DNA from: Gammaproteobacteria bacterium
GTDB lineage: Bacteria; Pseudomonadota; Gammaproteobacteria; UBA4575
Assembly (NCBI GenBank): GCA_965247265.1
Contig: OZ252002.1
Coordinates: 1,882,964 to 1,946,963, forward strand
Direction of reading: 5' to 3'
Length of the DNA: 64,000 bases
Position 1 is the stretch's first letter; the number at the start of each line of letters is the position of its first letter. A model generated the notes under the pieces. That model was given only the letters and a program-made list of their open reading frames with translations. It had not been told where the DNA came from and ran no database searches. The translations under genes and the position numbers were made by a program. Below, piece by piece: positions 4,342 to 59,607 of the stretch.

Positions 4342-5879
4342 TTAAATGACAATATCTTCTTTCGTTACGCGCATCACTTCTTCTAGCGTAGTGTCTCCTT
4401 CAAGCACTAAGCGCACTCCGTCTTGACGAATGCTATGTGTATGCAGATGTGCATATTTTTCTAGCTCTTGTTCTGCGCCCACATCATGAATCATTGTGCG
4501 CATGTTCTCATCGATGGATACCAATTCATAAATTCCTGATCTACCTGAATAGCCAGTACTGTTACAGGCATTGCATGAGCCTGGTGAATAAATAATGGGC
4601 GCATCATTCATTGCTACACCTGCTTGCGCCATTCTTAGTTGCTCATATTCCACTGAACTTGCGGTATGTGAAATTTTGCACTCATCGCACAACACCCGCA
4701 CTAATCTTTGCGCCAATACCGCGACGAGGACTGAAGCTAATAAGAAGGGTTCAACCCCCATGTCACGCATACGAGTGATAGCACCGACTGCTGTATTCGT
4801 ATGCAAGGTAGAGAACACCATATGCCCGTTAAACTTGCTTGCACTGCAATTTGCGCTGTTTCAAAATCACGAATCTCACCAACCATCACAACATCAGGGT
4901 CTTGGCGCAAAATAGCACGCAGACCTCGTGCAAAGGTCATGTCTACCTTTTGATTTACTTGAGTTTGCCCAATGCCATCTATGAAATATTCAATAGGATC
5001 TTCAACTGTCAGTATATTGCGTTTTTTATCATTAATTTCACTTAATGCTGCATATAGCGTTGTGGTTTTTCCTGATCCTGTTGGGCCGGTTACCAACACG
5101 ATACCATGTTGTTTTTCTATCGATAATTTAATCTTTTTGTGAATTTCAGACTGCATGCCGAGGTGACTTAAATCTAAACGCCCTGCTTGTTTATCTAGCA
5201 AGCGCAACACCACACGCTCTCCATGCCCAGAGGGTAGGGTCGATACACGTACATCTACGGGTCGTCCGGCAATGCGCAATGATATTCGACCATCTTGCGG
5301 TAAGCGTTTCTCAGCAATATCAAGTTGTGCCATAACCTTTATTCGCGAAACAACTAATGCACCAAGATTCCTTGGTGGTTGCAAAACTTCACGCAATACA
5401 CCATCAACACGCATGCGAACTGATAATCGAGATTCAAATGATTCAATGTGAATATCAGATGCATTCTCTTTAACGGCCTGTGTTAACAAAGCATTAATTA
5501 AACGAATAATTGGAGCATCATCGTCTGCGTCCATTAAATCTTGGGGTTCAGGTAGTGCTTCGGCAAGGCTTTCTAAATCAAGGTCATCTTCGAAACTTTC
5601 CATCATGGCGAGTGCGCCTGATGCGCTTTCGTCGTAAAGCTGCGTGAGCAATTCATCAAACTCTTCGTCTGATAAGGTGCGGATGTTTAATGGCTTGCCA
5701 ACAAAACGTCTGGCTTCTGCTAAGGATGGGGGTTTAACATCTGGACGCTGAAATATCATTACACGCCCATTGATTTCATTTCCAATTAGAATGCCATGCC
5801 GTTTGGCAAAACTAAATGGCGGCCTACGGACTTCGCGAGGTGCAAATGATGGTTGTGCTTTCTCGGCTTCCATGGTCAA
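4342..5879 (-). pseudogene. gspE: Type II secretion ATPase GspE, disrupted by a 1-nt deletion
   Basis: N-terminal ORF 4737-5879 ends ...AVQASLTG then leaves frame. C-terminal ORF 4342-4821 starts [16 protein letters not shown], the conserved His box. Walker [10 protein letters not shown] is present, as is the tetracysteine motif CDECK...CNAC. A missing C at about 4828 (ggcatatgg where ggccatatgg is expected) joins the halves. Confidence 0.8.
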
Positions 5880-9689: not shown

Positions 9690-10815
9690 TTCTGACTTAA
9701 ATTTGCCTGTTTTTCTGCCCGTTCCCGGTGCGCTTCAGCGAAAACTCCACCGGTGTTTTGTAACCCAGCTGGCTGTACGGCCTTTCGTGATTATGCATCT
9801 CTCTCCATCGGTAAATCTTGATCCGTGCATCGTCCAAAGACAAGCACCAGTTCCGGTTCGAACATTCCAGCCTCACACGGGCATTCAATGCCTCGATCAA
9901 CGCATTGCCCGCGGGCTTTCCAGGGCGTGATAAGTCCAGCGTCACACCGTTGGCATAGGCCCACAAGTCCACTTCTTTCGACACGAACCCCAGGCCACTG
10001 TCGTCTGCTCCCTGAATCGTACGCGGGATCTCGTACTCCCGGGTAGCCCGCTCCAGGGTGTGTACCACATCATAGCCCGTATACCTGCGGCGCACCTCCA
10101 TCGCAGGACTTACACGAGTAAAGTGATCCACTATCTTAACACCCTCAGCCTCTGGCCATCCAAGGTCTGGGCCGCCATACAATCCATGCTCCAGCAGTCA
10201 TTCTGGAAACGGACCGGGGTAATACGTGCTTTCCGCAGTTTCTCCTGCACTCGCCGCCGTGGGCGTTTGTGCCGCACCTGCAGCCCCATCTCGCAGTACA
10301 ATCGATAGACCTGCTTGCGACACTGACCGCCCACAGCCTTCCCGACGTAACAACGCATGTATGCGTAGATACCCGTACCGGGTGCGGGTGGGTCCGCGCA
10401 ATGTCCCGGATCCGCTACTTCAATGCCACCTGTTCCACCTTGCGTGACCGGTACAGCCAGGTCTATCGCGGCAAATACACCCCCTCGCAAGCCCGCCTGG
10501 CACTCACCCCAAAACCATCCATCCACCCGGCGCGCCAACTCCCTCATGCGCGCAGGCCTTAAAGCTTTTTTCGGATCACCTCCTACAGCATGTGACGGTC
10601 CAGGCTCAAGTCCGCCACCCTCTGCTTCAATCAATGGTTCTCAACCTCCAGCTTCTTCAACCGGCGTACCTCTGAAGACGCCAATCCCCCAAACTTCTTC
10701 TTTCACCGGTAACATGTCTGCTCCGAAATCCCCACCTCCGTGACACCCATACCGCCCTCATGCTGGTGCAGCGCATAGGCAATCTGCTCCTCGCTAAACT
10801 GCGACTTCTTCATGC
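9690..10815 (-). mobile_element. Degraded IS3-family insertion sequence (orfA/orfB remnants with multiple frameshifts and stops)
   Basis: The minus strand from 10812 encodes MKKSQFSEEQIAYALHQHEGGMGVTEV..., an IS3-family OrfA HTH start, interrupted by stops. The ORF at 10131-10634 and the ORF at 9697-10182 carry the IS3 OrfB integrase-core (DDE) homology (…KTPVEFSLKRTG). The element is GC-rich relative to the flanks. Exact ends are not determined. Confidence 0.75.
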
Positions 10816-11258
10816 AAAAACATCCTTCCCCTACAAGGACATCTTAACGAGATTTTTCGCACTATGCCTGGTTCAGTTTACGGGGAGAAGACCAATCATC
10901 ATCTTTTTCCTGTTCTTAGATTTGTGTCAGATTCTGGGTTTACCCACAAGAAGAAGCTTTTATGTTCATGGGCAGCATTACAATGCTCAAGACATACGGC
11001 CTGCACAATGGGTTTAGACCTAAATTGCCGATCACATTTGTCAGTGATGATTGGAACGTTGTTTTCGTGTGCCTTGGTCCATGCTCCTGAATTTCGCAAT
11101 AAAATTTTTCTGGGGCAATTCAGTTGTGAACAATGCCTTTTTATTTACTTTCCTCCTTGTAGCGAGTTTGCTCTGAGCTACATCCAATATTTGTGGTAGC
11201 CTTTAATATGTAAAGGTGTACAGTACACCGCACACCAATCCGGGAAAGTCAATATATT

Positions 11259-42183: not shown

Positions 42184-42300
42184 ACATCTATCTTAATGCG
42201 ATGTAGCTAATAGTTAAATTTTTCTGAAGGATGCAACTATTTAATTAGCAGACATTCCGTTTACATAGTGCGTATAGAAGGTGACTAGGCACGGGGTCAA

Positions 42301-42337
42301 CTCAGTACCGTATTTCTACCGAGGGATTTCAAGTCCG
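42301..42337. repeat. Direct repeat copy A (about 30 nt, 2 mismatches to copy B)
   Basis: cagtaccGTATTTCTACCGAGGGATTTcAAGTcCGA versus copy B GTATTTCTACCGAGGGATTTtAAGTtCGA. Confidence 0.7.
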
Positions 42338-42493
42338 AATAACTTAATAATATAGTTTAGAGTACTTATTTATCTAGTTGATTAATTAATTGAATATAAG
42401 GAATGATAATAGTGCCATTTTGAATATGCACAGGTAATAGTGCCCCTATTCTACCCCTGACTTACCTACAACTGAGGTTCTATCAATTTGATG

Positions 42494-42715: not shown

Positions 42716-42867
42716 GATATTTGCCTCTAGTCAAAATATCGTAATAATTAGACAGCGAACCTTACTCTACTAATACAGCAACTATTTTGGCAATTTCAAA
42801 GATAAATAGGCTATTTTTTACGATAGCCTATTAAACAAGCCTAAATATATGTTTTATTAAGTGGTGC

Positions 42868-42925
42868 CGGTGACGGAATCGAACCGGCACAGTATTTCTA
42901 CCGAGGGATTTTAAGTTCGATTCCC
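42868..42925. repeat. Direct repeat copy B, preceded by a perfect 8-bp hairpin (gtgccggt-gacggaatcga-accggcac)
   Basis: Copy B lies at 42890-42919. Immediately 5' is a hairpin whose minus-strand reading, ...gtgccggTTCGATTccgtcaccggcACCA, resembles a tRNA acceptor/T-arm minihelix ending in ACCA. Confidence 0.6.
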
Positions 42926-43532
42926 TACCCTTTGTAATCAACAACTTATAAAGCATTAACAGATGCTTATGGTTTGCAGTTCGTCGCTAACTTTAATGAA
43001 TTGTTGTGCTTATTTGCAGTCATTTACGCCAAAATTACGCCACAAATGTGGGTCGTTATCGATTATTTAAGGTCGCCGCATCATTTGATCTATTGCACCT
43101 GAAACATAATCATCAAGATAGCCGTCCGCCATAACTAGGCGTCAAATACCCCATCTTTTTCAAATAGCGAATATCAATACGTCGGCATTTCTCAACAGTC
43201 GTTTTTCGACTCAAACGAAACCTACGACCTGAATTAACACCGCCCACAACTGTTGTATAACAAAGAAATTATTGATTTATATATAATTAATTTGTTTTGT
43301 TTTCACTAACTCCTATTTGTTATCTGTTGTAATTTTTGTGACTATTTGCTAGTTAGTGCACAAAAATTGCACCTAATTAAACGAAATGTCTGCTTTCGGC
43401 AATATGCGGACATAACGCCATGCATCATCGGCAGAAAAAAGCAGAGCGGCGATTTTTGCAGTCCAAGTACATGTGATTGTTAGGCTTTTTGTATTATCCA
43501 GCGTAACCACATGATTATGGATATAAGTGTTT

Positions 43533-44321
43533 TTACAATTTATTACAAAACGTAAACAGCACATTTTCATCCAACCATTTAACCTTATCTGGATCAGAAA
43601 AGATTTTTTGTATATTCTCTTCAAATTCTAGTAATGCGGCACGAAACTCATCACCTGAATAAAGAGAAAATGTTGAATAATGCTTGCCTTCAGCTTGGCT
43701 TATGAGTTGTTTTAAGGATGAATTACGCTTGAACTGAAAAAAACGTATACTTTCCAATCTTGCGGAAACAATTTGATCATTCAAGTTATCCACCTGTGCG
43801 ATTTCCAAAAGCCTGTTTTCCTTTTCCGTAAATTTCGGAAAATATTTTCCCCAGACACTTTGTCTGTTTTGATTTTGTAAACGGGTGTAGATAAAAATAC
43901 GCCCGTTGTTATTAAGAACTTTGCTTGCATTTTCAACAAATGTAGGCAGTGAAAAATGGTGTATTGCATTAAAGCTGCTGACAAAATCAAGTGAACCAGG
44001 GGAAATATCCATTTTCTCCGCATCCATTACTTTTGTGGTAAAACTGCTTTGTCCATGGATTCTAAGATATTTTTCTGTCTCATCCACCATTGCCTTGTTG
44101 AGGTCCGTGCAAGTAAGATGAAGGTCAGGTATTTTTTGCAACATCAGCAAGTCGTATCGCCCACTACCGCAACCAATATCAACCCCTCTAATGGTTTCTT
44201 TACCGCTTAACTGCTCTTTTATGTAGTCAATTAGCTCTGGATCAGTTGTGCGCAACTCATTGTACGAAGCAGAGATTTCGTTAAAATGTTGAGTCATGTC
44301 TCGCATTATCAGTCTCCACAA
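43533..44321 (-). CDS. Class I SAM-dependent methyltransferase
   Basis: 262 aa. Motif I VDIGCGSGRYDLLMLQK and a post-I acidic residue. Confidence 0.8.
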   Translation of the reverse strand: MWRLIMRDMTQHFNEISASYNELRTTDPELIDYIKEQLSGKETIRGVDIGCGSGRYDLLMLQKIPDLHLTCTDLNKAMVDETEKYLRIHGQSSFTTKVMDAEKMDISPGSLDFVSSFNAIHHFSLPTFVENASKVLNNNGRIFIYTRLQNQNRQSVWGKYFPKFTEKENRLLEIAQVDNLNDQIVSARLESIRFFQFKRNSSLKQLISQAEGKHYSTFSLYSGDEFRAALLEFEENIQKIFSDPDKVKWLDENVLFTFCNKL

Positions 44322-44763
44322 TTGATGAATTCTTCTGTTAAACGATGAAGAATCATTCAGCTATCTTGAGTATAAAACTGGATGTTTCCGTTGGTAGCCT
44401 AATATTTTAATACAGAGCACTTTTGCTTAGTTATCACACTATGCGTGTAGAATCTGCGATATTCCTCATTAACGTGCACTAATATTAATTAAATAGTGAT
44501 ATCTGAGTATTTCTGCATGAATATCCCATATATTTGGTTAATATTGCTAAGTCCGCTTTGGGTCATTAGCAGTCATTAAACATTAAGTAGCAATTTATTT
44601 GGATATGCAATCAACCTTGGCGGATGATAACCACACCACAACGTCGGCACTTTGCTTTCTCGATATTGCCTACGGCGCCAAACCCGAAGGGTTGTATCGA
44701 TAACGACATAAAATTCCTCCCCCCGCCCCACGGCCTCCAGGACAGTGCGGATAACACGTTCAA

Positions 44764-45978
44764 TCAGGGGGATCCCGAGGATGGGGATGAGAGGCTTGCT
44801 GTCACCCCTTTGCTTGCAGCAGGCTGCCTTTGCCCGCTGCGATGATCAGGCACTTCATGCACTCTCCCCAGTTTATTATTGATAAAGGCTTCTGTCATAC
44901 GATGGGCTTCATCATCAGTGAACTGCCGTGACGGATGTTTGCAGAAATAGGCCGATGGTGCTTCCAGTACGCCACTCTGGCCCCGGTCCAATGCCAGCTT
45001 GGCACAACGAATCATATCGATGGCCACGCCCGCCGAGTTGGGCGAATCCTCCACCGACAGACGCATCTCGAGATTCATTGGTATGTCGCCAAACAGTTTG
45101 CCTTCCATGCGCACGAAGGCGATCTTGTTGTCATTCTGCCAGGGTACATAGTCACTGGGACCGACATGGATATTGTCGTCGTCTAAACGGCGGTCGGTCA
45201 CGGCCTGCACCGCCTCGGTCTTGGATTCCTTTTTGGAAGCCAGACGGTGGCGGTTCAGCATGTTTAGAAAGTCGGTATTGCCGCCAGTATTAAGTTGATA
45301 GGTGCGTTCCAGCTTAACCCCTCGTTTGGCAAATAGGTCAGTCAGTACGCGGTGGGTAATGGTTGCCCCCAACTGGGATTTAATATCATCGCCGATAAGG
45401 GGCAGTCCGGCCTCTTTAAAATGATCTGCCCACGCTCCTTCAGGATCGCTGGCGATGAAGACCGGGATATTGTTGACAAAGGCCAAACCGGCCTTCAATG
45501 CGCAGCCGGCATAAAACCGGGTCGCCTCCTCAGAGCCGACAGGCAAATAGTTCACCAGGACTTCCGCACCGGATTCCTTGAGCGCTTTGATAATTTCTTC
45601 TTCCGCAGGCTCTGGTTCATCGGCCAGAATAAAAGTACGTTTTTCGTCGTAATTTTTCATGTGGTCCGAAAACCCGTCGAGGATTCTGCCCATCCGTACA
45701 GTGACACCGGATTCAGGGAGTTCAGAACAGAAAACCGTCGTGCAGTTGGGTGGGGAATAAATGGCCTCGTGCACATCGACGCCGACTTTTCGCTGGTCGG
45801 TATCGAAGGCCGCGACGACCTCTATGTCGCCGGGTTTGTATCCGCCAATCTCCCAATGCATCAGACCGATGGCCTCCAGCGGCGTCTTTTCCCGATAGTA
45901 GTGGAGGCCCTGTATTAAAGAGCTCGCACAGTTTCCAATCCCGATGATTGCAATCTTAATCTTATTCAAATTCATCAC
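44764..45978 (-). CDS. myo-Inositol-1-phosphate synthase (bacterial/archaeal type) with a read-through C-terminal extension
   Basis: 404 aa. N-terminal Rossmann IKIAIIGIGNCASSLIQG plus the central and C-terminal MIPS regions. The last ~30 aa (LGRVHEVPDHRSGQRQPAAS...) look like read-through into GC-rich non-homologous DNA. The locus is strongly GC-richer than its surroundings. Confidence 0.75.
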   Translation of the reverse strand: MMNLNKIKIAIIGIGNCASSLIQGLHYYREKTPLEAIGLMHWEIGGYKPGDIEVVAAFDTDQRKVGVDVHEAIYSPPNCTTVFCSELPESGVTVRMGRILDGFSDHMKNYDEKRTFILADEPEPAEEEIIKALKESGAEVLVNYLPVGSEEATRFYAGCALKAGLAFVNNIPVFIASDPEGAWADHFKEAGLPLIGDDIKSQLGATITHRVLTDLFAKRGVKLERTYQLNTGGNTDFLNMLNRHRLASKKESKTEAVQAVTDRRLDDDNIHVGPSDYVPWQNDNKIAFVRMEGKLFGDIPMNLEMRLSVEDSPNSAGVAIDMIRCAKLALDRGQSGVLEAPSAYFCKHPSRQFTDDEAHRMTEAFINNKLGRVHEVPDHRSGQRQPAASKGVTASLSSPSSGSP

Positions 45979-47554: not shown

Positions 47555-47998
47555 ATGAAGAAACGCAGGCCAAATCCACGGTTGGTAAAAATTCATCGTA
47601 ATTACACAGTGGAGGAAATATCAAACCTATATGGTATTCACAAAAACACAGTTAGGCAGTGGATAAAACGAGGGTTACCCATCTGTGATGATAAACGACC
47701 AATGCTAATTCTGGGCAAGGATTTGTACAGTTACCTTTTGAAGCAACGAAACAAAAATAAGCAGCCATGTGGACCGGGCGAAATTTATTGTGTGCGATGT
47801 CGTACAACAAAATCTCCAGCTGGTGATATGGCTGATTATCAGGAGCTTACACCAACACAAGGTAATTTAATCGGCATCTGCCCTACTTGTGACGCAATGA
47901 TTTATAGACGAGTCAGTTTGAGAAAAATGGAAGCCGTAAAAGGTTTATTGGAAATTAATTTACCGCAAGCATCTCAACACATAAGTGAGAGCAGTTAG
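47555..47998 (+). CDS. HTH plus zinc-ribbon protein of an integrative element
   Basis: 147 aa. EEISNLYGIHKNTVRQWIKRG HTH and paired Cys pairs (CGPGEIYCVRC...CPTC). Confidence 0.45.
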   Translation: MKKRRPNPRLVKIHRNYTVEEISNLYGIHKNTVRQWIKRGLPICDDKRPMLILGKDLYSYLLKQRNKNKQPCGPGEIYCVRCRTTKSPAGDMADYQELTPTQGNLIGICPTCDAMIYRRVSLRKMEAVKGLLEINLPQASQHISESS

Positions 47999-48011
47999 TC
48001 CTCCGTAAACA

Positions 48012-49139
48012 GTGACTTTAACTAATGTGGTGAATACTATGAAAAATTACAACCCAAATAATGAACGTATTAAACGTAAATATTTTATATTTACTAAAGA
48101 AGCAAAGCGTCAAAATGAAGCTACAATTGACGCAATAGCAAAAGCTATGAATAGATTTGAAGTGTACACAAAGTTTCGTGACTTTAAGGCATTTCACTAC
48201 GAACAGGCCATTGCCTTCAAGAAACATTTATCTGAACAGAAAAATCAACAAACAGGTAAGAATTTAAGCAAGGCCACGCTAAGTACGACACTTGGACATA
48301 TAAAGCGTTTTTTTCAATGGCTCTCAGAGCAGCCTGGCTATAAATCCCGTATATCCTATTCAGAGGCCGAGTATTTCAATTTATCTGAAAAAGACGCACG
48401 TATTGCCACAGCTCATAGGACCAAGCCAGTACCCACACTTGATCAAATCAAACATGTCATCGATTCAATGTCAGGAGATTCTGACATAACACAAAGAAAT
48501 CGCGCGATAATTGCTTTTACGATCCTGACTGGAGCAAGAGACAGTGCTATTGCTTCATTGAAATTAAAACACATAGATTTTACATCTGGATACGTATTTC
48601 AGGACGCTAGAGAAGTACGTACAAAATTTAGCAAAACGTTTAATACGTATTTTTTCCCGGTCGGCGATGAAATTCGTCAAATTGTAGAAGTCTGGGTAAC
48701 ACACTTAATTGAGGATTTACTATTTAGTCATGACGATCCTATGTTTCCTTCAACACAAGTATCTGTCGGCGAAAACCAGTTATTTGAAGCAGTTGGGATT
48801 ACGCGAGAACATTGGAGTAATTCGTCGCCTATACGCAAAATATTTAAAGATGCTTTTACAAATGCTGGTCTGCCCTATTTCAACCCACACAGTTTTAGGA
48901 ATACCCTTTCTATGTTCGGTCAATCTGTCTGCAAAACACCAGAGGACTTTAAAGCATGGAGTCAAAATCTTGGACATGATGATGTTATGACTACATTTAT
49001 TAGCTACGGTGAAGTTCCAAATCAGCGTCAGGCTGAGATTATTCATGGCATGGGGTCAATACCTACTCAAACTAACCATCCTGATATTGAACTACTTGCG
49101 AATGCTATAGCTAGAGAATTGCGTAATTCATCATGCTAG
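48012..49139 (+). CDS. Tyrosine site-specific recombinase (phage integrase family)
   Basis: 375 aa. Catalytic-domain residues in the ...HSFRNTLSMFG... and ...GHDDVMTTFISYG... context are consistent with the R..HxxR..Y arrangement. Confidence 0.8.
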   Translation: MTLTNVVNTMKNYNPNNERIKRKYFIFTKEAKRQNEATIDAIAKAMNRFEVYTKFRDFKAFHYEQAIAFKKHLSEQKNQQTGKNLSKATLSTTLGHIKRFFQWLSEQPGYKSRISYSEAEYFNLSEKDARIATAHRTKPVPTLDQIKHVIDSMSGDSDITQRNRAIIAFTILTGARDSAIASLKLKHIDFTSGYVFQDAREVRTKFSKTFNTYFFPVGDEIRQIVEVWVTHLIEDLLFSHDDPMFPSTQVSVGENQLFEAVGITREHWSNSSPIRKIFKDAFTNAGLPYFNPHSFRNTLSMFGQSVCKTPEDFKAWSQNLGHDDVMTTFISYGEVPNQRQAEIIHGMGSIPTQTNHPDIELLANAIARELRNSSC

Positions 49140-49701: not shown

Positions 49702-51980
49702 TTAACAATGACCAGCAATCTTTAATGATTTTTCAACGTAATCTTGTAGTTCACCACTATCAATTAATACGCCATCTCTTGGTTGTCCATCGTCGTGATG
49801 ATATCGTCTACAATACTCATTTATTTCCTCTAGCTCTTCATGCAATTCCCAGAGTATGTGACCGCCACCAATCTCTTTAATTTTTTCTACTATGCTACCA
49901 AGTGCATCATTGTTACCAAAATGCCTTGGGTAAGCCAATTTGCAATACCCTTCTAAAACTATTCTCAATTTTTTAATAATCTCACCTTCATCGCCTGATC
50001 CATCTGATAAATATTCCAGTAACGCATCGATATCTTTGTGATATGTCCATTTAAGCGCCTCTTCAATGTCCCATTCCGTGATCATTGTATTTTTTTCTTG
50101 CACGCGTGTTAATTGAAGTGTTTTTTGTTGTCCTGGACTTAAACGTTCCCAAAGCAACCCCAAAAAGTTGGGATCATGAGATAAGACGATAACTTGTTTA
50201 CATCGTTCACCACATTTTTTTATTTGATATACAGTTTGAGACTGTCTAAAACGGTCTAAACTCGTAAAAGGATCATCAAAAATTATAATTTTATTAGATT
50301 TCTCGTCATCTTGTTCAATCTGAGCCAAAAAAAATGCCAAAGCAAGAGTGCTTCTATCACCAGAACTCAAAGTATTTTTAAAACTGGGTTCACTTAATGG
50401 AGTTCTTTCGTCCCCTAGTTTTATAGGCCGATCGTTAATAATAATGTGATAGCTAGAGCTGGCTACACCGCCTGCAAAAGTATGTGATGTTTTGCCAATT
50501 CTGAAACCTGCGTTTATTTTCCTTAGATATTCATTAATAATGTTTTCGTAATCCCTTACTACGTTATTGCTATGATTTTTTAAGGCAGTTTTCTTCTCTT
50601 CTTTTTCATGATCTAAAATATTTTTTTCTGTAATAAGATCACTATATTCTGAACATGCTTCTACTACCTCTTTTTCATGGCGCTTTTTTGTTGCTATTAG
50701 TAATATAAATTCGTTTTCAACGGTTTCTAAAAGTGCACCCTCTACTTCTTCTTTCTTTAAACTGATGTTTTTGTTAGAAGCAATAATACTTGCATTATAG
50801 GCATCTATTATTGTCCCTAACTCTAATAGATTAGATAATGCGTCTGAATACGTATTGTCTGTTTTAATCTCTTCAAGAGGCGATTGAACTTTTTTCTTTA
50901 GCAAATTTAATGTTATTTCTCTATATGCTTGGAGAACTTTTTCAATATCTAATTTTTCATTTATTTTGGGTAATTCAATTTCGCAATATTCCTGCCAAAA
51001 TTCACATTTACTTACATTTTTTTCTATTTCCGCTGTAATCTCAGATATTACTCTGTCGCTAAACCCTATTTGTATTTTGCTACTTTTCCCATTTATCGAT
51101 GCCTTTAATTCATTATACGCATCGCTAAAATGTGTTTTATAAGCATCTATAAGTGCTATCCCCTCTGTACTCTGTCCACAGAAGCTACATGCATCATCTT
51201 TTAAATATTTTAAGCCGTCTGATAACCATGTTTCACCTGATTCATCCATGTTATGTTTAGCTAAATGTGCACTAAGCATGATTTCTGCGTCACTACTAAC
51301 CCCCTCAATACCTTTTGATAGAATATCTGTAAAATCGTTATCTATCTTAGGTAATTCTATTGTTTTTAATAATTGCTTCTTTTGTATAACATCAGATATT
51401 TTTAAAGATGCTAGTTCTTTTTCTATTTTTTAATTTTCTGTTCTATATTTTCATCTGCTTCAAGTTTCAAAAAATCATTCAGGTTAATACGTTCTTGAAA
51501 AAAGGCGGAAACTGCAGTTCTAGCCTCAGCAATTTCCCTATTTTTCTCTCTAACTTCGCCATCAATTTCATTAATACGTCGCGCTATAGAGACACCTTCT
51601 TTTCCAACAATAACCTCAGCAAGATTTTTTCGTTGTTCTGTACCAATAATTTCACCAGAAAAAACATTGTCTGAAATAAATGTATTATCAAAAATTTCTA
51701 TTTCATTGATGTTATCTGTCCAAATACCGTTTTCAAATCTTATATTGCCAGTGTCAAATAAAATATTTACTTCTGGTTGATCTTGTATCCCTAACGTTTT
51801 GCGACCAAATATATGATTACAATCATTAGTTTTAAGTGATCTTAAGATTGCACATAAGGTTGTTTTCCCGCGTCCATTTTCAGCAAATATAAGATTGTAA
51901 TCTCTAAGTGTTACATCGCCAGCCGAATTAGAATTCAAAAAACGACCAATATTTTTTATGCTTACAAATTTAGATAACAT
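49702..51980 (-). pseudogene. Large P-loop ATPase of the ABC/SMC-like AAA_13 type, frameshifted
   Basis: ORF 51423-51980 has N-terminal Walker A ENGRGKTTL. ORF 49702-51279 contains long coiled-coil stretches and the C-terminal D-loop/Walker B IIIFDDPFTSLD. The roughly 140-nt junction is out of frame. Confidence 0.55.
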
Positions 51981-51990
51981 TTAAAATCTC

Positions 51991-53279
51991 TTAAAAATCT
52001 CCATCATCCCCGATATTTTTATCTGGCCCAGCTATCGCGATTAGCTCCAGTCCTTCAATTTCTTGAATGGCTTTACCTGCAATGCCCTGAAGATCACCAT
52101 ACATACCAACTGTTGATTCAATAACACCCTGAATCTGAGCTTCGCGTTTAGCCCATAAACGCATTGTTGATTTGCGTTCCTTATCCAAATCCGTTTGCAT
52201 ATCCGTAAATTTTTCAACAATGGCTTCAATGCGATGTCTGAACTTAGGCCCTGTTAAATACTGATAAACAAGTTCCATTTTTGTTTCTTGACCTTCCTGT
52301 GCTAGTCGAGTATTCGCAACTTCAATGAGCGATTGGCGAAGCGTAATTGCAAGTGGCATTGCATAGCGTGGCTGTGTAATACAGATGCCATCAATATTTC
52401 CAAATGTTTCAAGTTCTTTGGGGAGTGCATTAGACACAAGTACAGCAATCACTGCATTTGCTGCACGTCGATCCCCTCTTAGCTTTGCAAGCCAGCCATC
52501 ACTCCAGTTTTTTGTTCTTTTAGACTCCCAAAGAATCGCACCACAAACTTGGCCTGTTTGTGAAACAACTGCTTGTAACACATCACCACCAAACTCGCCT
52601 TTTGCAACCGGTTCTATGTTATCAAATGGAAACTTGGTTTTTAGATTTGTCTCAAGCTCTAATTCAAGCGCTTCGCCTTGTAGCTGTTGAGAGCCCTGCT
52701 CTGCTTTTCTTTTTAAATCTTCAATTTGCCGCTGCATGGAAGCGATTTGTTCTTCCTTTTCGGTAACCCTTAGTTTAAGGTCCTCTTCCGCTTCTAGTTT
52801 TGCTTTTTTATGAACTTCTCCAAGGGATGCCTGAATACGCTTTTCTGCGGTAAGATCAAGTTCACGTTTTGCATCGTCTAATTCTCGTTCCTTACGGAGT
52901 AGATCTGCCTGAGCCTTCTGAGCTTCTTCTAGCTTTTTGTCTCGTTGTTTAAAACTTCTTGTAATTCTTCTACTTGTTTTGTTTTATTTTGTATATCTGT
53001 TGTCGCAGCCAATTTTGCTTTCTTCGCTTCTTCCTGAGCGATAGCAGCACGCTCAGTTTTTAATTTTTCAGCAACTTGTTCATCTATAGCCTTCCGTGCA
53101 TCGGCAACTGCTCTTTGTTGAGCACGCAATTCTGCTTCGCGTTTTGAGATATCAGATTCTTTTTCAGCAATCTTCTTTTCGTATTCTGTACGAACAGATT
53201 GAATAAGTGGTGCAGCAAGTGATTCTGTTAGTTTGATCTCTGTTTTACAGCTAGGGCAGACGATTGTTGGTTCTGTCAT
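51991..53279 (-). pseudogene. DUF2130-family protein, frameshifted
   Basis: ORF 52929-53279 encodes an N-terminal zinc-ribbon CPSCKTEIKL followed by a Lys/Glu/Ala coiled coil. ORF 51991-52737 carries the conserved C-terminal domain. The 190 nt between them are in another frame. Confidence 0.5.
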
Positions 53280-54992: not shown

Positions 54993-55985
54993 TTGATTGC
55001 CGCCGCCGAACGCAAAGCGAAAAAACAACATGATGTTGAGATTTATGAAAACCAATTCGCCAGCATTGTGCACGAATGGTTTGCAAAAAAATATACCAAC
55101 TTAAATCCAAGTTATGCCAAGCGTGTATGGCGTGCATTAGAGAAAGATATTCTTCCTTACATTGGAAAATTACCGATCACCAAAATTGACGGTCCTGCAC
55201 TACGCAAATGTTTAATGAAAATTGAAGAACGTGGCGCACATGAAACCGCGCATCGCACCTTACAAATCTGTGCACGCATTTATGGCTACGCGAATGCCTG
55301 CGGCTATTGCACTCATGATCCAACTCGCGGCATGAAAACCGTCCTCACCCCTGCAAAAACGGAACACTTCCCTGCCATTACCGACCCCAAACTCTTAGGT
55401 GAGTTATTACGTGCCATGGAGAGTTACGATTCACTCCTCACCCGCTCAGCCTTATTTGTGGGCGCCTATACCTTTGTGCGTCCGGGTAATTTACGCCAAG
55501 CCGAGTGGCAGGAAATTAGCTTGGAAGACAAGGTGTGGAAGATCCCTGCAGAGAAAATGAAACTTAAAAAACCGCATATCGTCCCGCTTGCGAATCAAGT
55601 GAAACGCATTTTTGAAGAACTTCATCCTCTCACCCATAAAAGTGACTACGTGTTTCCAAGTGTGCGCGATCGACGTCGTCCCATGAGTGAAGCCACAGTC
55701 AATGCAGCATTAAGACGCATGGGTTACGGCACAGATGAAATGACCGGGCACGGTTTTCGACACATCGCCTCCACATTATTAAATGAACAAGGCGTTTGGA
55801 ATGCCGATGCAATTGAGCGCCAACTTGCACATACCGATCGCAGTAAAATCAGAGCAACCTACGATCACTCGAACCACTTACCGGAGCGACGCAAAATAAT
55901 GCAAGCCTGGGCGGATTATCTTGATGGCTTGCGTACCGGGAACAATGTCGTGTCGTTCAATGAACTGAAAATGGCCAGTTCATAA
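54993..55985 (+). pseudogene. P4-type tyrosine integrase lacking its N-terminal ~100 aa
   Basis: The sequence begins inside the family at ...AAERKAKKQHD...FASIVHEWFAKK...LPITKIDGPALRK. The catalytic C-terminus HGFRHIASTLLNEQG...ERQLAHTD...Y is present. There is no ATG and no DUF4102-like arm-binding domain upstream; the frame opens just after a TGA. Confidence 0.7.
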
Positions 55986-55995
55986 AACAAGTACG

Positions 55996-56493
55996 TTGGC
56001 TGTGAGTCTTACGGAAGAGTTAGTCTGCATGAAAGTGGAAGAAGCAGCCTCTGGAAACGCAGAATCTGCACGATGGTGTATACAAGAATTTTGTAATTCA
56101 ATAAAAGCTGACGTCAATCCAGATTATTTATCCAATATGGATTCTTATAGTGCCCTTTCGGACCTTAAAGTTGACCCACAAATTCTTATTTATTTACACG
56201 CCTGCTTTGAATTACTGCTTGAAGATGATGAATTGGATGCAGCTTTAGTACTCGGTTTGAAACAAGGGTTATCAACAAATCCTGATAACGATCTGAATGT
56301 ACAGGATATTGGATTTTGTCAATCCATCATGGTCAAAGTGGCGCAAGAAGTACCGATCGAAAAAGCCTTAATGCTCACAGCGAAAGAATTTCATGTCAGT
56401 CAAAGCATACTAAAAGCAATTTGGCGCAATGCTAACAATAGGTTAACGACTGAAATGATGGCGGAATTTGAAAAACGTCTAGAGATTAGATAA
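55996..56493 (+). CDS. hypothetical protein
   Basis: 165 aa, acidic. No recognisable domain. Confidence 0.35.
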   Translation: MAVSLTEELVCMKVEEAASGNAESARWCIQEFCNSIKADVNPDYLSNMDSYSALSDLKVDPQILIYLHACFELLLEDDELDAALVLGLKQGLSTNPDNDLNVQDIGFCQSIMVKVAQEVPIEKALMLTAKEFHVSQSILKAIWRNANNRLTTEMMAEFEKRLEIR

Positions 56494-56584
56494 CTCTTTA
56501 ACAAATCCTCTTAACAGCATGTTTTAAATGAACTTCTACTTTACTACCATATGAGCATCTTGTTATTAATTCAAAGGTATTCAT

Positions 56585-56821
56585 ATGAAAAACCTACCCG
56601 ACACGGGATTTCTGAGAATCCAACAAATTATTGGTAATCCTAAAGCAACCCCGCCGATACTCGCTATTATTCCAATCGGTAAATCAACGTGGTGGCAAGG
56701 TGTAAAAACGGGCCGATTCCCTAAACCAATTAAGTTATTTGAACGTATTACGGTATGGCGCGCAGATGATATTCGCACCCTTCTTGAATCTTATGAGATA
56801 TTCTCGGATGCTGAATCATGA
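56585..56821 (+). CDS. AlpA-family phage-type transcriptional regulator
   Basis: FLRIQQIIGNPKATPPILAIIPIGKSTWWQGVKTGRFPKPIKLFERITVWRADDI is the AlpA HTH pattern. Confidence 0.7.
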   Translation: MKNLPDTGFLRIQQIIGNPKATPPILAIIPIGKSTWWQGVKTGRFPKPIKLFERITVWRADDIRTLLESYEIFSDAES

Positions 56822-57285
56822 GCAAACTAACCGATAAACAAAACGTATTTATTCAAGAATACTTGCTAGATCTAAATGCAACACAAGCTGCAATCCGTGC
56901 AGGATATAGTGTTAAAGCTGCTTCAGAAATTGGCTATGAGAACCTGAGAAAACCTCAGATTCAAAACAAACTTGAGGATCTAATAAATGAGAGAGCAAAT
57001 CGATTAGAAATTGATTCAGATTGGGTAGTTAAAGAACTAAGGGGTCTATACGAATTATGTAGAGTGCACAGAGAGTATTCTACTGCTCTTAAAGCCTTAG
57101 AATAGATGGGTAAACACCTTGGTATGTTTAGTGAAAAAGCAAATCCATCGAACAATGTGCAGTATATTTTATCAGACAGGCCAATGACTGAAGAGGAGTG
57201 GGAAGAAAATACTATAAGGATCCAGAATCTTCAAATAATCATTAGCGTAAATAGATATTTAGACATTTCTAATTGCACGAAATGA
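56818..57285 (+). pseudogene. Phage terminase small subunit (P27/Terminase_2 type) with an in-frame TAG
   Basis: The N-terminal FIQEYLLDLNATQAAIRAGYSVKAASEIGYENLRKPQI is the family hallmark. The frame reads ...KALE-TAG-MGKHLGMFSEK..., continuing the family sequence after the stop. Confidence 0.6.
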
Positions 57286-57310
57286 ATTATGTTTCCACTA
57301 GCAAAAAGTT

Positions 57311-58705
57311 TTAGGATGTTAAGTATGCTTGATATATCTCCGACGACTTCAGAATATAGCTTCGCCCTTCAACTACAAACCCATCCAACTTATGTTCTAT
57401 GGCAAATGATGAAAGATCATCTATTTTGTTTATAAATCCTTTACCATTGAAGTTCAGTGAAGTGTTGCATAAGACTCCGTAACCAGTACGTTTCTTGAAT
57501 GCTATTAACAAGTTGTACAAGTTTAGATTTGTCGCAGACGACACTGTCTGAATTCGAGCAGTTTTATTCACATGAGTAACTGCCGCTAGCGCATCCATCG
57601 TTACATTATAAGTATAAAGCATATGCGGACTCTCGTGGTTACAACCAAACCAACGTGCACCATCTTCTTCTAAACATACAGGAGCGATAAGGCGAAATTG
57701 CTCGCGCTGTTTGATCTCATTCAACCGCGTTTTAGTGCTTTCTCGGAATGGCGCAGCAAGAATTGAACGGTTACCTAAAGCGCGCGGCCCGATTTCATAT
57801 TTACCATTGACCCACCCAAGAATAAGGTCTTTTGCCAACATGTCGGCAATCATCTTGTCATCAGCTTCGTATAGGTCATACAGTTTCTCATTGAAAGACT
57901 CGGTTGTGTCGAATTACAGGCCTGAATAGACATTCCAATCGATTTCTGGATTACCTGTATAGTGAAACTGAGCATCAATGGCTGTCCCAATTGCAGAACC
58001 TGAATCGTTAGCAACGGGTGGCACGAAGACCTCTGGAAAAAGGCCCGATTCCTTCCATTTAGTGTTCCAGTCACAATTCAGACCACATCCACCAGCGATG
58101 ATCAGAGGAATTCTCTTATTCATGTTCGCTTTAGCGAATTGATAAAAAATATCAAAAATTTTGTCACTAAAAATACCTGCAAAATTCCGAAATTCTGGAT
58201 CATCTATCCCTACGTTGTAGTATCGCGAATGCTCAAGATCTTTGTACAAACTTAGTCGAATATGTGATGAACCCAATAGAAAGTCGATCAACTCAATCTC
58301 TTCTGAAGAAGGTGTGCTCCGATTCGAGAAAGAAGCTAAAGCCATAAGTTTCCCAGCATCTGAAAAGCGAGAAAAGGGTGCATTCTTTGGGAAGGTTGGA
58401 TCGGCCAAGCCGTAAATCGAGGTATAGCGATTACCAGGCTCATTCAGAACATTGGCAAGCAGTGTTATTTTCAGACTAGAATCAATTTCGTAGAAAGCTC
58501 CGATCGCACCTTCCCAAATTAACGCATAACAAGGATCACCTTTCGGTAGATTTGACATACCGAAAGCACAGAGTAAATGCGACCGCTCGTGAGATGACGA
58601 AAAATAGTGGACTGGCTTTCCTAAAAAGTGCCGTTTGTCTTGTATGATGTCATCCATAGTCAAGCCACGATAACCGACATAAGGTTGTGGCCCGAACAAC
58701 CTCAC
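57311..58705 (-). pseudogene. NodU/CmcH-family carbamoyltransferase, N-terminally truncated and with an in-frame TAA
   Basis: The body matches carbamoyltransferases (SHERSHLLCAFGMS = HxxxHxxxAF region, C-terminal domain). The ORF opens with a GTG and lacks about 70 N-terminal residues. A TAA at 57914-57916 is followed in frame by FDTTESFNEKLYDLYEADDKMIADM... Confidence 0.6.
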
Positions 58706-58714
58706 TCTGCATTT

Positions 58715-58735
58715 AAGTATGTCCGCTTTAGGTCG
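58715..58735 (-). promoter_or_regulatory. Conserved upstream motif copy 1 (minus-strand reading AAAGCGGACATACTTAAAT)
   Basis: About 10-20 nt upstream of the carbamoyltransferase ORF start. Shares AAAGCGGACAT..TTAA with copies 2 and 3. Confidence 0.5.
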
Positions 58736-58765
58736 TTAACGGTCATTAATAAATTGAGGCTATAT

Positions 58766-59170
58766 TTAGACTTGTGAGCGCAGTTCAACGGTGTTGCCTT
58801 CTGGATCTTTAATATAAACTGATCTGCCTGTACCTTGAGCACCATATCGATCAGAAAATTCACCAACGTCAATGCTGTGAGATTTGAGGTAGTTTCTTAT
58901 TTCTTCTTCACTGATCATCTTCAATTACAAACAAAAATGATCCATATTATTTTCTGTTTTACTGGGTGGCCCACCACCTAATTTTCCTATTTTACTTTCT
59001 ACTCTAACAAAATCTATTAAAGCATTCCCAGCTCTTAATTGTGTTATACCAAATTCTGGCGAAGATTCTCGCTCAACTTTACAACCTAAAACTCCGGTAT
59101 AGAAATCGAGCATTTCATTTATTTTTGAAGCTCGTAAAACTACATGATCAATTCCAACTATCTCAAACAT
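58766..59170 (-). pseudogene. VOC (glyoxalase/bleomycin-resistance) family protein with an in-frame TAA
   Basis: MFEIVGIDHVVLRASKINEMLDFYTGVLGC...HFCL, then TAA, then LKMISEEEIRNYLKSHSIDVGEFSDRYGAQGTGRSVYIKDPEGNTVELRSQV in the same frame. Confidence 0.6.
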
Positions 59171-59193
59171 AATTAGCTACTCCAACTTTAATT

Positions 59194-59221
59194 AAATGTC
59201 CGTCCGCTTTGGTTCGAAAGC
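59194..59221 (-). promoter_or_regulatory. Conserved upstream motif copy 2 (AAAGCGGACGGACATTTAATTAAA), with the small palindrome gctttggttcgaaagc
   Basis: About 35 nt upstream of the VOC start codon and just downstream of the DUF427 stop. Confidence 0.5.
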
Positions 59222-59246
59222 AGTCAAAGAATGTATACAATTATCT

Positions 59247-59528
59247 CTATTCAATAACTTCAACCCCACGCCAGAAAGCAACATATCCTTCAATATTCTT
59301 CACTTTATCTTTTGCGTCTGGATAACACCATGCAGAATCTTCGTTTTTCTCTCCGCGGACATTAATTGTGTAGTAGCTCGCTTGTCCTTTCCAGTAACAC
59401 GTAGTTTGTTTACTGCTTTTTTCTAAATACTCATAATTAACCGAGTCAGACGGAAAGTAGTAGAAAGTATCGACAATAATCGTTTCATCACTCTCTGCAA
59501 TAACTTCATTATTCCAAATTGCTTTCAT
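59247..59528 (-). CDS. DUF427 family protein
   Basis: 93 aa. ...FYYFPSDSVNYEYLEKSSKQTTCYWKGQASYY... matches the DUF427 pattern. Confidence 0.7.
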   Translation of the reverse strand: MKAIWNNEVIAESDETIIVDTFYYFPSDSVNYEYLEKSSKQTTCYWKGQASYYTINVRGEKNEDSAWCYPDAKDKVKNIEGYVAFWRGVEVIE

Positions 59529-59545
59529 AATTCATTTCTATATTA

Positions 59546-59566
59546 AATATGTCCGCTTTCGGCCAA
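59546..59566 (-). promoter_or_regulatory. Conserved upstream motif copy 3 (AAAGCGGACATATTTAATATA)
   Basis: About 20 nt upstream of the DUF427 start codon. Confidence 0.5.
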
Positions 59567-59607
59567 TAGAGACTATTCAACTTAATATTGTTGTTATATC
59601 ATAACAT

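Follow-up and report, generated by a model that had tools for sequence, protein, structure and literature searches.

Why should three adjacent genes of unrelated function, all on one strand, carry the same short sequence just ahead of their start codons? The question arises in a 64,000-nt stretch of contig OZ252002.1 from a gammaproteobacterium (the window, meaning this whole stretch). An earlier reading of the letters alone (the original prediction) noted a conserved unit of ~21 nt upstream of a carbamoyltransferase pseudogene, a VOC pseudogene and a DUF427 gene, and offered an operator, a promoter, a cassette boundary or a processing site as explanations. We find that this unit belongs to a 28-nt inverted-repeat site that occurs, in two types, at the ends of small genes in many Proteobacteria. 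With slightly better than even confidence, we regard these sites as joints of mobile gene modules, recombined by a trans-encoded enzyme in a system other than the integron.

Two types of 28-nt site

All three copies were recovered where they had been placed, on the minus strand, 13, 25 and 20 nt upstream of the carbamoyltransferase GTG, the VOC ATG and the DUF427 ATG, respectively. At their core is an exact 9-mer, AAAGCGGAC (GTCCGCTTT on the other strand), which occurs four times in the 64 kb, on the minus strand only, against an expectation of 0.32; a count of four was reached in none of 100 shuffles of the window. When the four copies are aligned, conservation runs upstream past this core to a total of ~30 nt. 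The motif is real, but the unit is longer than proposed and extends upstream of AAAGCGGAC as a palindrome; the core belongs to the right arm of an inverted repeat of 28 nt, laid out as 11-6-11.

Position-wise conservation across 411 sites, collected as described below, delimits 11-bp arms (consensus ATGWCCGCTWW and AAAGCGGACAT) around a 6-bp centre, giving a 28-bp site. Type A reads ATGTCCGCTWT-TGGCCG-AAAGCGGACAT, although many Alphaproteobacteria have TGGCGC as the centre and soil contigs have TGGCCC; type B reads ATGACCGCTWW-YGACCC-AAAGCGGACAT, with a recurrent A.A mismatch at arm position 4. The idea that A and B are a single site in two orientations was dropped, as the arms do not fit; linking half-sites by the orientation of the central CC leaves A centres ambiguous, on both strands.

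Scored against the consensus, five window sites reach at least 23/28, and shuffled windows, used as a control, yielded almost nothing at 21/28 or above. All five lie on the minus strand. Sites c1 (58719..58746; ATGACCGTTAA-CGACCT-AAAGCGGACAT; 26/28) and c2 (59196..59227; TTGACTGCTTT-CGAACC-AAAGCGGAC(GGAC)AT; 23/28), both type B, precede the carbamoyltransferase and VOC genes. Site c2 carries a 4-nt GGAC tandem duplication within its right arm, which is missing from the homologous sites upstream of VOC in four of the collected loci (L232, L233, L234 and L238). The copy at DUF427, c3 (59549..59576; ATAGTCTCTAT-TGGCCG-AAAGCGGACAT; 24/28), is type A; its centre and right arm are intact and its left arm matches at only 7/11 positions. 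Two sites are additional to the three of the original prediction: c4, type B (44549..44576; ATGACTGCTAA-TGACCC-AAAGCGGACTT; 26/28), 25/29 identical to c1 over the extended element, and c5, type A (43386..43413; ATGTCCGCATA-TTGCCG-AAAGCAGACAT; 24/28). Together, and 14 kb from the other three, they bracket a SAM-dependent methyltransferase gene (43533..44321, minus strand; Pfam Methyltransf_25/11/12), with B 228 nt upstream of the open reading frame (ORF) and A 120 nt downstream of its stop codon. The hexamers of copy 1 (GTTAAC) and copy 2 (TTCGAA) are not independent signals; each lies a single base from the family consensus (GCTAACGACC and TTTCGACCC, respectively), and in c1 a C-to-T change turns the consensus GCTAAC into GTTAAC.

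The proposed identities of the three genes beside c1 to c3, all on the minus strand, are borne out by Pfam, and translation confirms one in-frame stop in each of the two supposed pseudogenes. Module 1 is the intact 93-aa DUF427 gene (59247..59528; PF04248, E 5.6e-30), module 2 the VOC/glyoxalase-family pseudogene (58766..59170; PF00903, Glyoxalase) and module 3 the carbamoyltransferase (NodU/CmcH-like) pseudogene (57311..58705; Carbam_trans_N/Carbam_trans_C). The site scan gave no site after the stop codon of the last.

Elsewhere, A and B are mostly paired as an A-spacer-B unit of 62–111 nt that begins ATGTCCGC and finishes GCGGACAT(T). The stem starts with AT, is effectively ~9 bp long and contains TGTC; the centre spans 6–10 nt, and the flanks read (C)GAATG or AAATG. 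Among 135 distinct A sites, the arms pair in 77.0% of cells, compared with 76.6% in column shuffles; compensatory change is weak, and the one measure that departs from the shuffles is the number of extra pair types. As single strands, the window copies fold weakly (−3.2 to −4.4 kcal/mol, z −0.6 to −1.65). Judged from sequence, these figures point to arms conserved as half-sites rather than as a selected structure, which would fit recognition of double-stranded half-sites by a protein.

Arrays, gene ends and recurring modules

A search pattern that fits three of the four window copies, GACYGYTWWYGAMCNAAAGCGGAC (~40 bits), was run against a single genome of each species and matched at least 105 genome stretches with at least 121 exact matches; the B-site statistics below are biased by this pattern, and the neighbouring A sites fall outside it yet have the same arms. 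Metagenomes, scanned in return with an A-type pattern, gave at least 120 further loci, with B sites close by. In all, more than 225 loci (each collected as at most 8–21 kb) have sites; they belong to Alpha-, Beta- and Gammaproteobacteria or come from metagenomes of soil and sea. Record titles name Noviluteimonas, Lysobacter, Dyella, Pseudomonas, Halomonas, Woeseiaceae, Thiotrichales and many metagenome-assembled genomes (MAGs) among the Gammaproteobacteria, Sphingomonas, Phenylobacterium, Brevundimonas and Rhizomicrobium among the Alphaproteobacteria, and Burkholderiales and Nitrosomonadaceae among the Betaproteobacteria. A few matching contigs are binned to other groups, which may be binning error. 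In Noviluteimonas caseinilytica every match lies within 2.768–2.800 Mb; other genomes have matches in several distant regions. Ten plasmids (Pantoea, Klebsiella, Raoultella) hold partial copies, and the two regions inspected have no annotation at the site. E. coli genomes gave no match, and neither did a pattern scan of the 2.9 million viral contigs of IMG/VR, so the sites are not phage-borne.

Along one strand the order is gene, A, spacer, B, gene. Of the loci with at least three sites, 45 of 57 from genomes and 48 of 70 from metagenomes have all of them on the same strand, and A-then-B outnumbers B-then-A by 27 to 1. Position relative to genes is equally regular: in low-GC loci, 66/85 A sites lie no more than 150 nt past a co-oriented ORF (median gap 11 nt, 15 overlapping the stop codon), and 69/99 B sites precede an ORF start (median 37 nt). 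Long runs of small unrelated genes have sites in every intergenic gap. In L073, 11 A-spacer-B units and a lone B occupy 6.3 kb, each behind a small co-oriented ORF; L238 and L240 have at least 18 sites each in 20 kb, and similar arrays of co-oriented single-gene units are found in L078, L058/L069 and L235. The genes themselves mostly lack a Pfam match or are of assorted function, and three array starts (L010, L105 and L234) adjoin rpoD-tRNA, tRNA-Thr or housekeeping genes. The cassette-like organisation and boundary position that had been suspected from three genes are seen as same-strand, single-gene arrays bracketed by sites, with A after the stop and B before the start. In soil contigs L170 (1–11932), L174 and L136 we also observed runs of ~1.1-kb periplasmic binding-protein paralogs bracketed by sites with TGACCC/TGGCCC centres; in L170, two oppositely oriented runs face a gene for a 196-aa FimB-like tyrosine recombinase (4926–5516).

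Could the motif instead be an operator, promoter or RNA-processing signal that is shared by the three window genes and co-regulates them? In its favour, the motif lies 13–25 nt upstream of each start codon and is followed by an AT-rich stretch, and the spacers of low-GC A-spacer-B units at other loci contain TTGGAA-17 nt-TAAAAT. We nevertheless consider a shared signal very unlikely. A consensus scan of the minus strand over 57–60 kb, the strand of the genes, detected no sigma-70-like site, which tells against a promoter and against a −10 element in TTTAATATA. An intrinsic terminator was rejected as well, there being no T run at the sites, mixed sequence after GCGGACAT and only weak folding. 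A locus-specific operator is excluded because the sites span classes, in hundreds of unrelated loci, and follow stops as well as precede starts; moreover, two of the three genes are dead. As a separate observation on the spacer, low-GC loci (L073, L078, L074 and others) conserve GGTTGGAAT followed after 17 nt by TAAAAT/TAATAT, which overlaps the first base of B; this sigma-70-like layout would start transcription inside B.

Genes recur together with their sites. The VOC gene lies, with one site on each side, in five contexts with unrelated neighbours: the window, L232/L233 beside an MHYT-LytTR gene, L234 beside an rnc-era-recO-pdxJ block, L238/L239 beside a Peptidase_M23 module and L240/L241 beside another glyoxalase module. 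The homologs of the window pseudogene are intact (134 aa) and 80–91% identical to it. Nucleotide homology of the window VOC module to the other contexts is confined to 59234..58719, from c2 to the last base of c1, and that to L232–L234 stops exactly at 58719. Upstream of VOC, hybrid centres are found in L233 (TGG|CCC) and L232 (TGT|CCC). DUF427 homologs with 80–83% amino acid identity are site-flanked in L235 and L236/L237, making three contexts with the window; L236/L237 have a full A site at the place equivalent to c3, and the AT-rich tail of the noted motif at copy 3 is explained by the leader ATATTTAATATAGAAATGAATTATG, common to the homologs at both loci. Thus, wherever the same genes recur in other genomes, the motif is retained, where its absence would have spoken against the original prediction. 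No homologs of the window carbamoyltransferase, methyltransferase, SnoaL or inositol-phosphate synthase were present among the loci collected.

Comparison of related loci places the breakpoints inside the sites. L013 and L028 are 96% identical and come from different MAGs; their homology begins between positions 14 and 15 of B, and the partner site is an A-left/B-right hybrid. In L058/L069 the left arms of B differ while the centre and right arm are identical, and at the other end the sole nearby mismatch sits in the right arm of A. The segment shared by L105 and L157 (98.7%) is bounded by an A centre and a B centre, with a reversed ORF inside it. Modules common to different loci end at A and start in B, and the spacer and left arm of B stay behind. 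In the window, synteny with the closest relative, CP046178.1 (L109; 94% amino acid identity on the adjacent outer-membrane protein), begins only at 59566/59567, inside the centre of c3; this site is a junction between module DNA and conserved chromosome. CP046178.1 has no sites across 21 kb of core DNA. We also noted that the orthologous sites of L232 and L233 (5949–5976 in both) differ at 5/28 positions in flanks that are, by eye, ~93–95% identical, and so seem to be changing faster than their surroundings, or to have been exchanged.

The main rival explanation is a set of intergenic palindromes of the repetitive extragenic palindrome (REP) or bacterial interspersed mosaic element (BIME) kind, in which two hairpin types joined by a linker sit at gene 3′ ends and act on mRNA stability, transcription attenuation or DNA topology. 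They would spread by a transposase encoded elsewhere, or by none, and gene mobility would be a by-product of recombination between dispersed repeats. We rate this a serious possibility, though an unlikely one. Size, palindromy, two variants, a linker and a place downstream of co-directional genes are all BIME-like, and several genomes have their sites dispersed among regions far apart. The lack of a linked enzyme and an effectively 9-bp stem that begins with AT also agree with the CGTC/TGTC-tagged REP superfamily (PMC3733652), the closest of these families, although its described features match only partly. Yet near-identical sequence across classes is unusual for REPs, site orientation strictly follows gene orientation with a fixed A-then-B order, all gaps are filled in long runs of small unrelated genes, and one gene, VOC, moves with its sites into five contexts. 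The GTAG tag was not found, nor was RAYT in 231 loci; the loop length, unpaired tag, CCA tail and head-to-head dimers described for the CGTC families do not fit; compensatory change and the folding of the window copies are weak; and the closest relative has no sites in its 21 kb of core DNA.

A candidate mechanism and the search for an enzyme

If the sites are module joints, they would connect small, usually single-gene DNA modules, with A after the stop codon of the module gene and B before the next gene. Exchange would proceed by conservative site-specific recombination, the crossover falling within the 6-bp centre or at its edge, so that each half-site would remain with its adjoining DNA and whatever lies between two centres would be transferred as one piece. 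A putative dimeric enzyme, supplied from another place in the genome, would bind the arms; an 11-6-11 geometry is that of Xer-type tyrosine-recombinase sites. Arrays would grow by repeated insertion beside existing sites.

The search for such an enzyme used approximate probe sequences (IntI1, XerD, gamma-delta resolvase, IS608 TnpA and the E. coli RAYT). For an integron integrase, which the original prediction had suggested seeking nearby, the window offers a tyrosine recombinase (48012–49139) that scores 25.9 against the TIGR02249 cutoff of 265, and the IntI1 probe, run with tblastn and phmmer over 231 loci (~1.3 Mb), returned only two weak fragments. The array starts in L010, L105 and L234 hold no integrase and no intI/attI. 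No RAYT/IS200-like transposase was seen in the 231 loci searched with these probes. A recurrent 1.1-kb unit of soil contigs, considered as a candidate transposase, encodes periplasmic binding-protein paralogs.

Several points weigh against the module-joint explanation. Probes for tyrosine recombinases, serine recombinases and HUH transposases (phmmer, tblastn) found only isolated, non-recurring genes, among them a FimB-like recombinase in L170, a P4-type integrase in L157, a resolvase in L019 and a tyrosine-recombinase fragment in L071. All-versus-all ORF clustering of 105 loci gave no family in more than seven loci, and the recurring ones are housekeeping. The breakpoints are fixed by only a handful of module pairs and, since the arms are all alike, homologous or microhomology-mediated exchange would also put junctions inside sites. 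Because the A and B centres differ (TGGCCG and YGACCC), a strict tyrosine-recombinase exchange of A with B would meet heterology. Lone B-gene-A and gene-B-gene arrangements are not made by one simple insertion; more than one step would be needed.

The same data bear on whether the A-spacer-B unit is a non-canonical attC, that is, a single long hairpin, imperfectly paired (outer stem, internal loop, mismatched inner stem, variable loop), recombined by a distant integron integrase, as in clusters of attC sites lacking integron-integrases (CALINs). Arrays of co-oriented, mostly uncharacterised small ORFs and a unit length of 62–111 nt would suit this, as would the pairing of A-left with B-right and A-right with B-left in a two-stem layout in which B has the A.A mismatch at arm position 4. 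The RYYYAAC/GTTRRRY cores are absent, however; boundaries fall at both A and B and not at one point at the unit 3′ end; arrays start beside rpoD-tRNA, tRNA-Thr or housekeeping genes with neither intI nor attI; no IntI is found in ~1.3 Mb; and the attC of Xanthomonadales is of another type (PMC8352920). An integron-type recombination site, one of the original suggestions, is accordingly extremely unlikely.

Known families were no closer. Rfam gave no match at the sites (window region at a permissive threshold, six array loci) and only tRNAs across the whole window, and open-access literature, searched by sequence string and by topic, yielded no description of them. Br-REP1/Br-REP2 of Bradyrhizobium have different sequences. 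A DNA-uptake sequence was dropped because of the class-wide spread and low density of the sites.

Within the module-joint explanation, the system in the window would be a relic, its three modules (DUF427, VOC and carbamoyltransferase) lying at the edge of a degraded genomic island. The likely signs of decay are two dead genes, the site in which 4 nt are duplicated and the half-site joined to core DNA. Adjoining the three modules, an N-terminally truncated P4-type integrase gene, an AlpA-like gene and a terminase small-subunit fragment (54993–57105) form an island remnant. A homologous integrase (E 9e-77) is encoded in L157 (1498–2748), 157 nt upstream of an A site, and an 88%-related genome, L111 (7545–8477), has another such integrase at the equivalent chromosomal spot.

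Further observations concern the surroundings. Just past the carbamoyltransferase stop, 57279–57291 is a 13-nt perfect inverted copy (GAAATGAATTATG) of the DUF427 leader and ATG (59526–59538), which may be chance (~0.15 expected) or the stub of an inverted module. A gene for myo-inositol-1-phosphate synthase (44764–45978) directly upstream of c4 has ~52% GC in a 38% GC genome and is probably foreign DNA. At 47555–49139, 3.4 kb from c4, an excisionase-like helix-turn-helix gene is followed by that of a XerC/D-like tyrosine recombinase of 375 aa, which by its NCBIfam score is not an integron integrase. The gene for an AAA_13 ATPase is divided between two ORFs (49702–51980 and 51991–52737) and is probably a pseudogene; it lies beside a DUF2130 gene, and the pair looks defence-like. 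A 1-kb stretch (10001–11000) has 55% GC and a strong negative GC skew. Finally, the minus strand at 42852–43047 holds an element of ~190 nt whose 3′ part is like that of a tRNA-Leu(UAA), with anticodon arm, long variable arm, T arm and CCA; a shorter fragment lies near 42300–42345. It is 87% identical to two copies within the module array of L013 (208–398 and 4681–4877) and comes after an A site in both genomes; neither ARAGORN nor Rfam reported a tRNA at this place. Its appearance is that of an att-type tRNA fragment, left among the modules by an interleaved integrative element.

Comparison with known systems

To our knowledge, integrons are the only well-understood stockpile of single-gene cassettes in bacterial chromosomes. 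More tentatively, and with rather less than even confidence, we suggest that the sites belong to a widespread system, independent of the integron integrase, in Alpha-, Beta- and Gammaproteobacteria of soil and sea, in which single genes would be exchanged between two 28-bp site types by a recombinase encoded elsewhere and gathered into chromosomal arrays of dozens of modules, parallel to integrons and mechanistically distinct from them. If so, the flow of accessory genes in environmental Proteobacteria would have to be read differently in the light of this second cassette system, which would account for the runs of small orphan genes not flagged by integron finders and would supply a new site/recombinase pair usable as a tool. 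Even as REP-like elements, the sites would be a palindrome family of unusual breadth and strict polarity, outside current repeat catalogues and Rfam. In either case, the 28-nt consensus makes the family directly searchable in any genome.

Among repeats, the CGTC/TGTC-tagged REP superfamily predominates in Alphaproteobacteria, has no known dedicated transposase and includes the clustered Neisseria dRS3/NIME elements (Di Nocera et al. 2013, PMC3733652). Like the present sites, these are short intergenic palindromes in two linker-joined variants, mostly after co-directional genes, with stems starting in AT; they are frequent in Alphaproteobacteria and have no known transposase of their own, and dRS3 forms clustered mosaics and is a recombination target. 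Unlike them, our sites have no unpaired tag, TGTC lying inside the stem, and no CCA tail; the centre is 6–10 nt, compared with a 4–5-nt loop, and A and B share an orientation where those REPs form head-to-head dimers. REPs in general differ from the present family in its gene-fixed order and orientation, its cross-class conservation and the movement of genes with half-sites, and GTAG-type REPs in the GT[AG]G that is absent from the hairpin foot here.

With integron cassettes and attC sites, CALINs included, the family shares same-strand arrays of single, mostly promoterless, unrelated small genes, imperfectly palindromic separators of 60–110 nt, the same gene in different arrays and cassette-typical content (VOC, DUF427, SNase, unknowns). 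It differs in that array starts lack IntI/attI and the sites lack R″ (RYYYAAC) and R′ (GTTRRRY) cores. The unit consists of two complete 28-bp palindromes with breakpoints at both, in place of a single crossover at the 3′ end of a cassette carrying its own attC, and lone B-gene-A arrangements occur outside arrays. Canonical Xanthomonadales attC sites are of the aadA type (PMC8352920).

The pdif (XerC/XerD) modules of Acinetobacter plasmids and the integrative mobile elements exploiting Xer (IMEX) offer a different likeness. There too, 28-bp 11-6-11 sites bracket small gene modules that turn up in different contexts, and no recombinase is linked to them because the enzyme is chromosomal. The arms here are unrelated to the XerC/XerD consensus (GGTGCGCATAA for XerC and TTATGTTAAAT for XerD). 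The sites described here lie in direct orientation, in contrast to the alternating or opposite orientation in pdif modules, and they are chromosomal, with two centre types, in long arrays across many classes of Proteobacteria.

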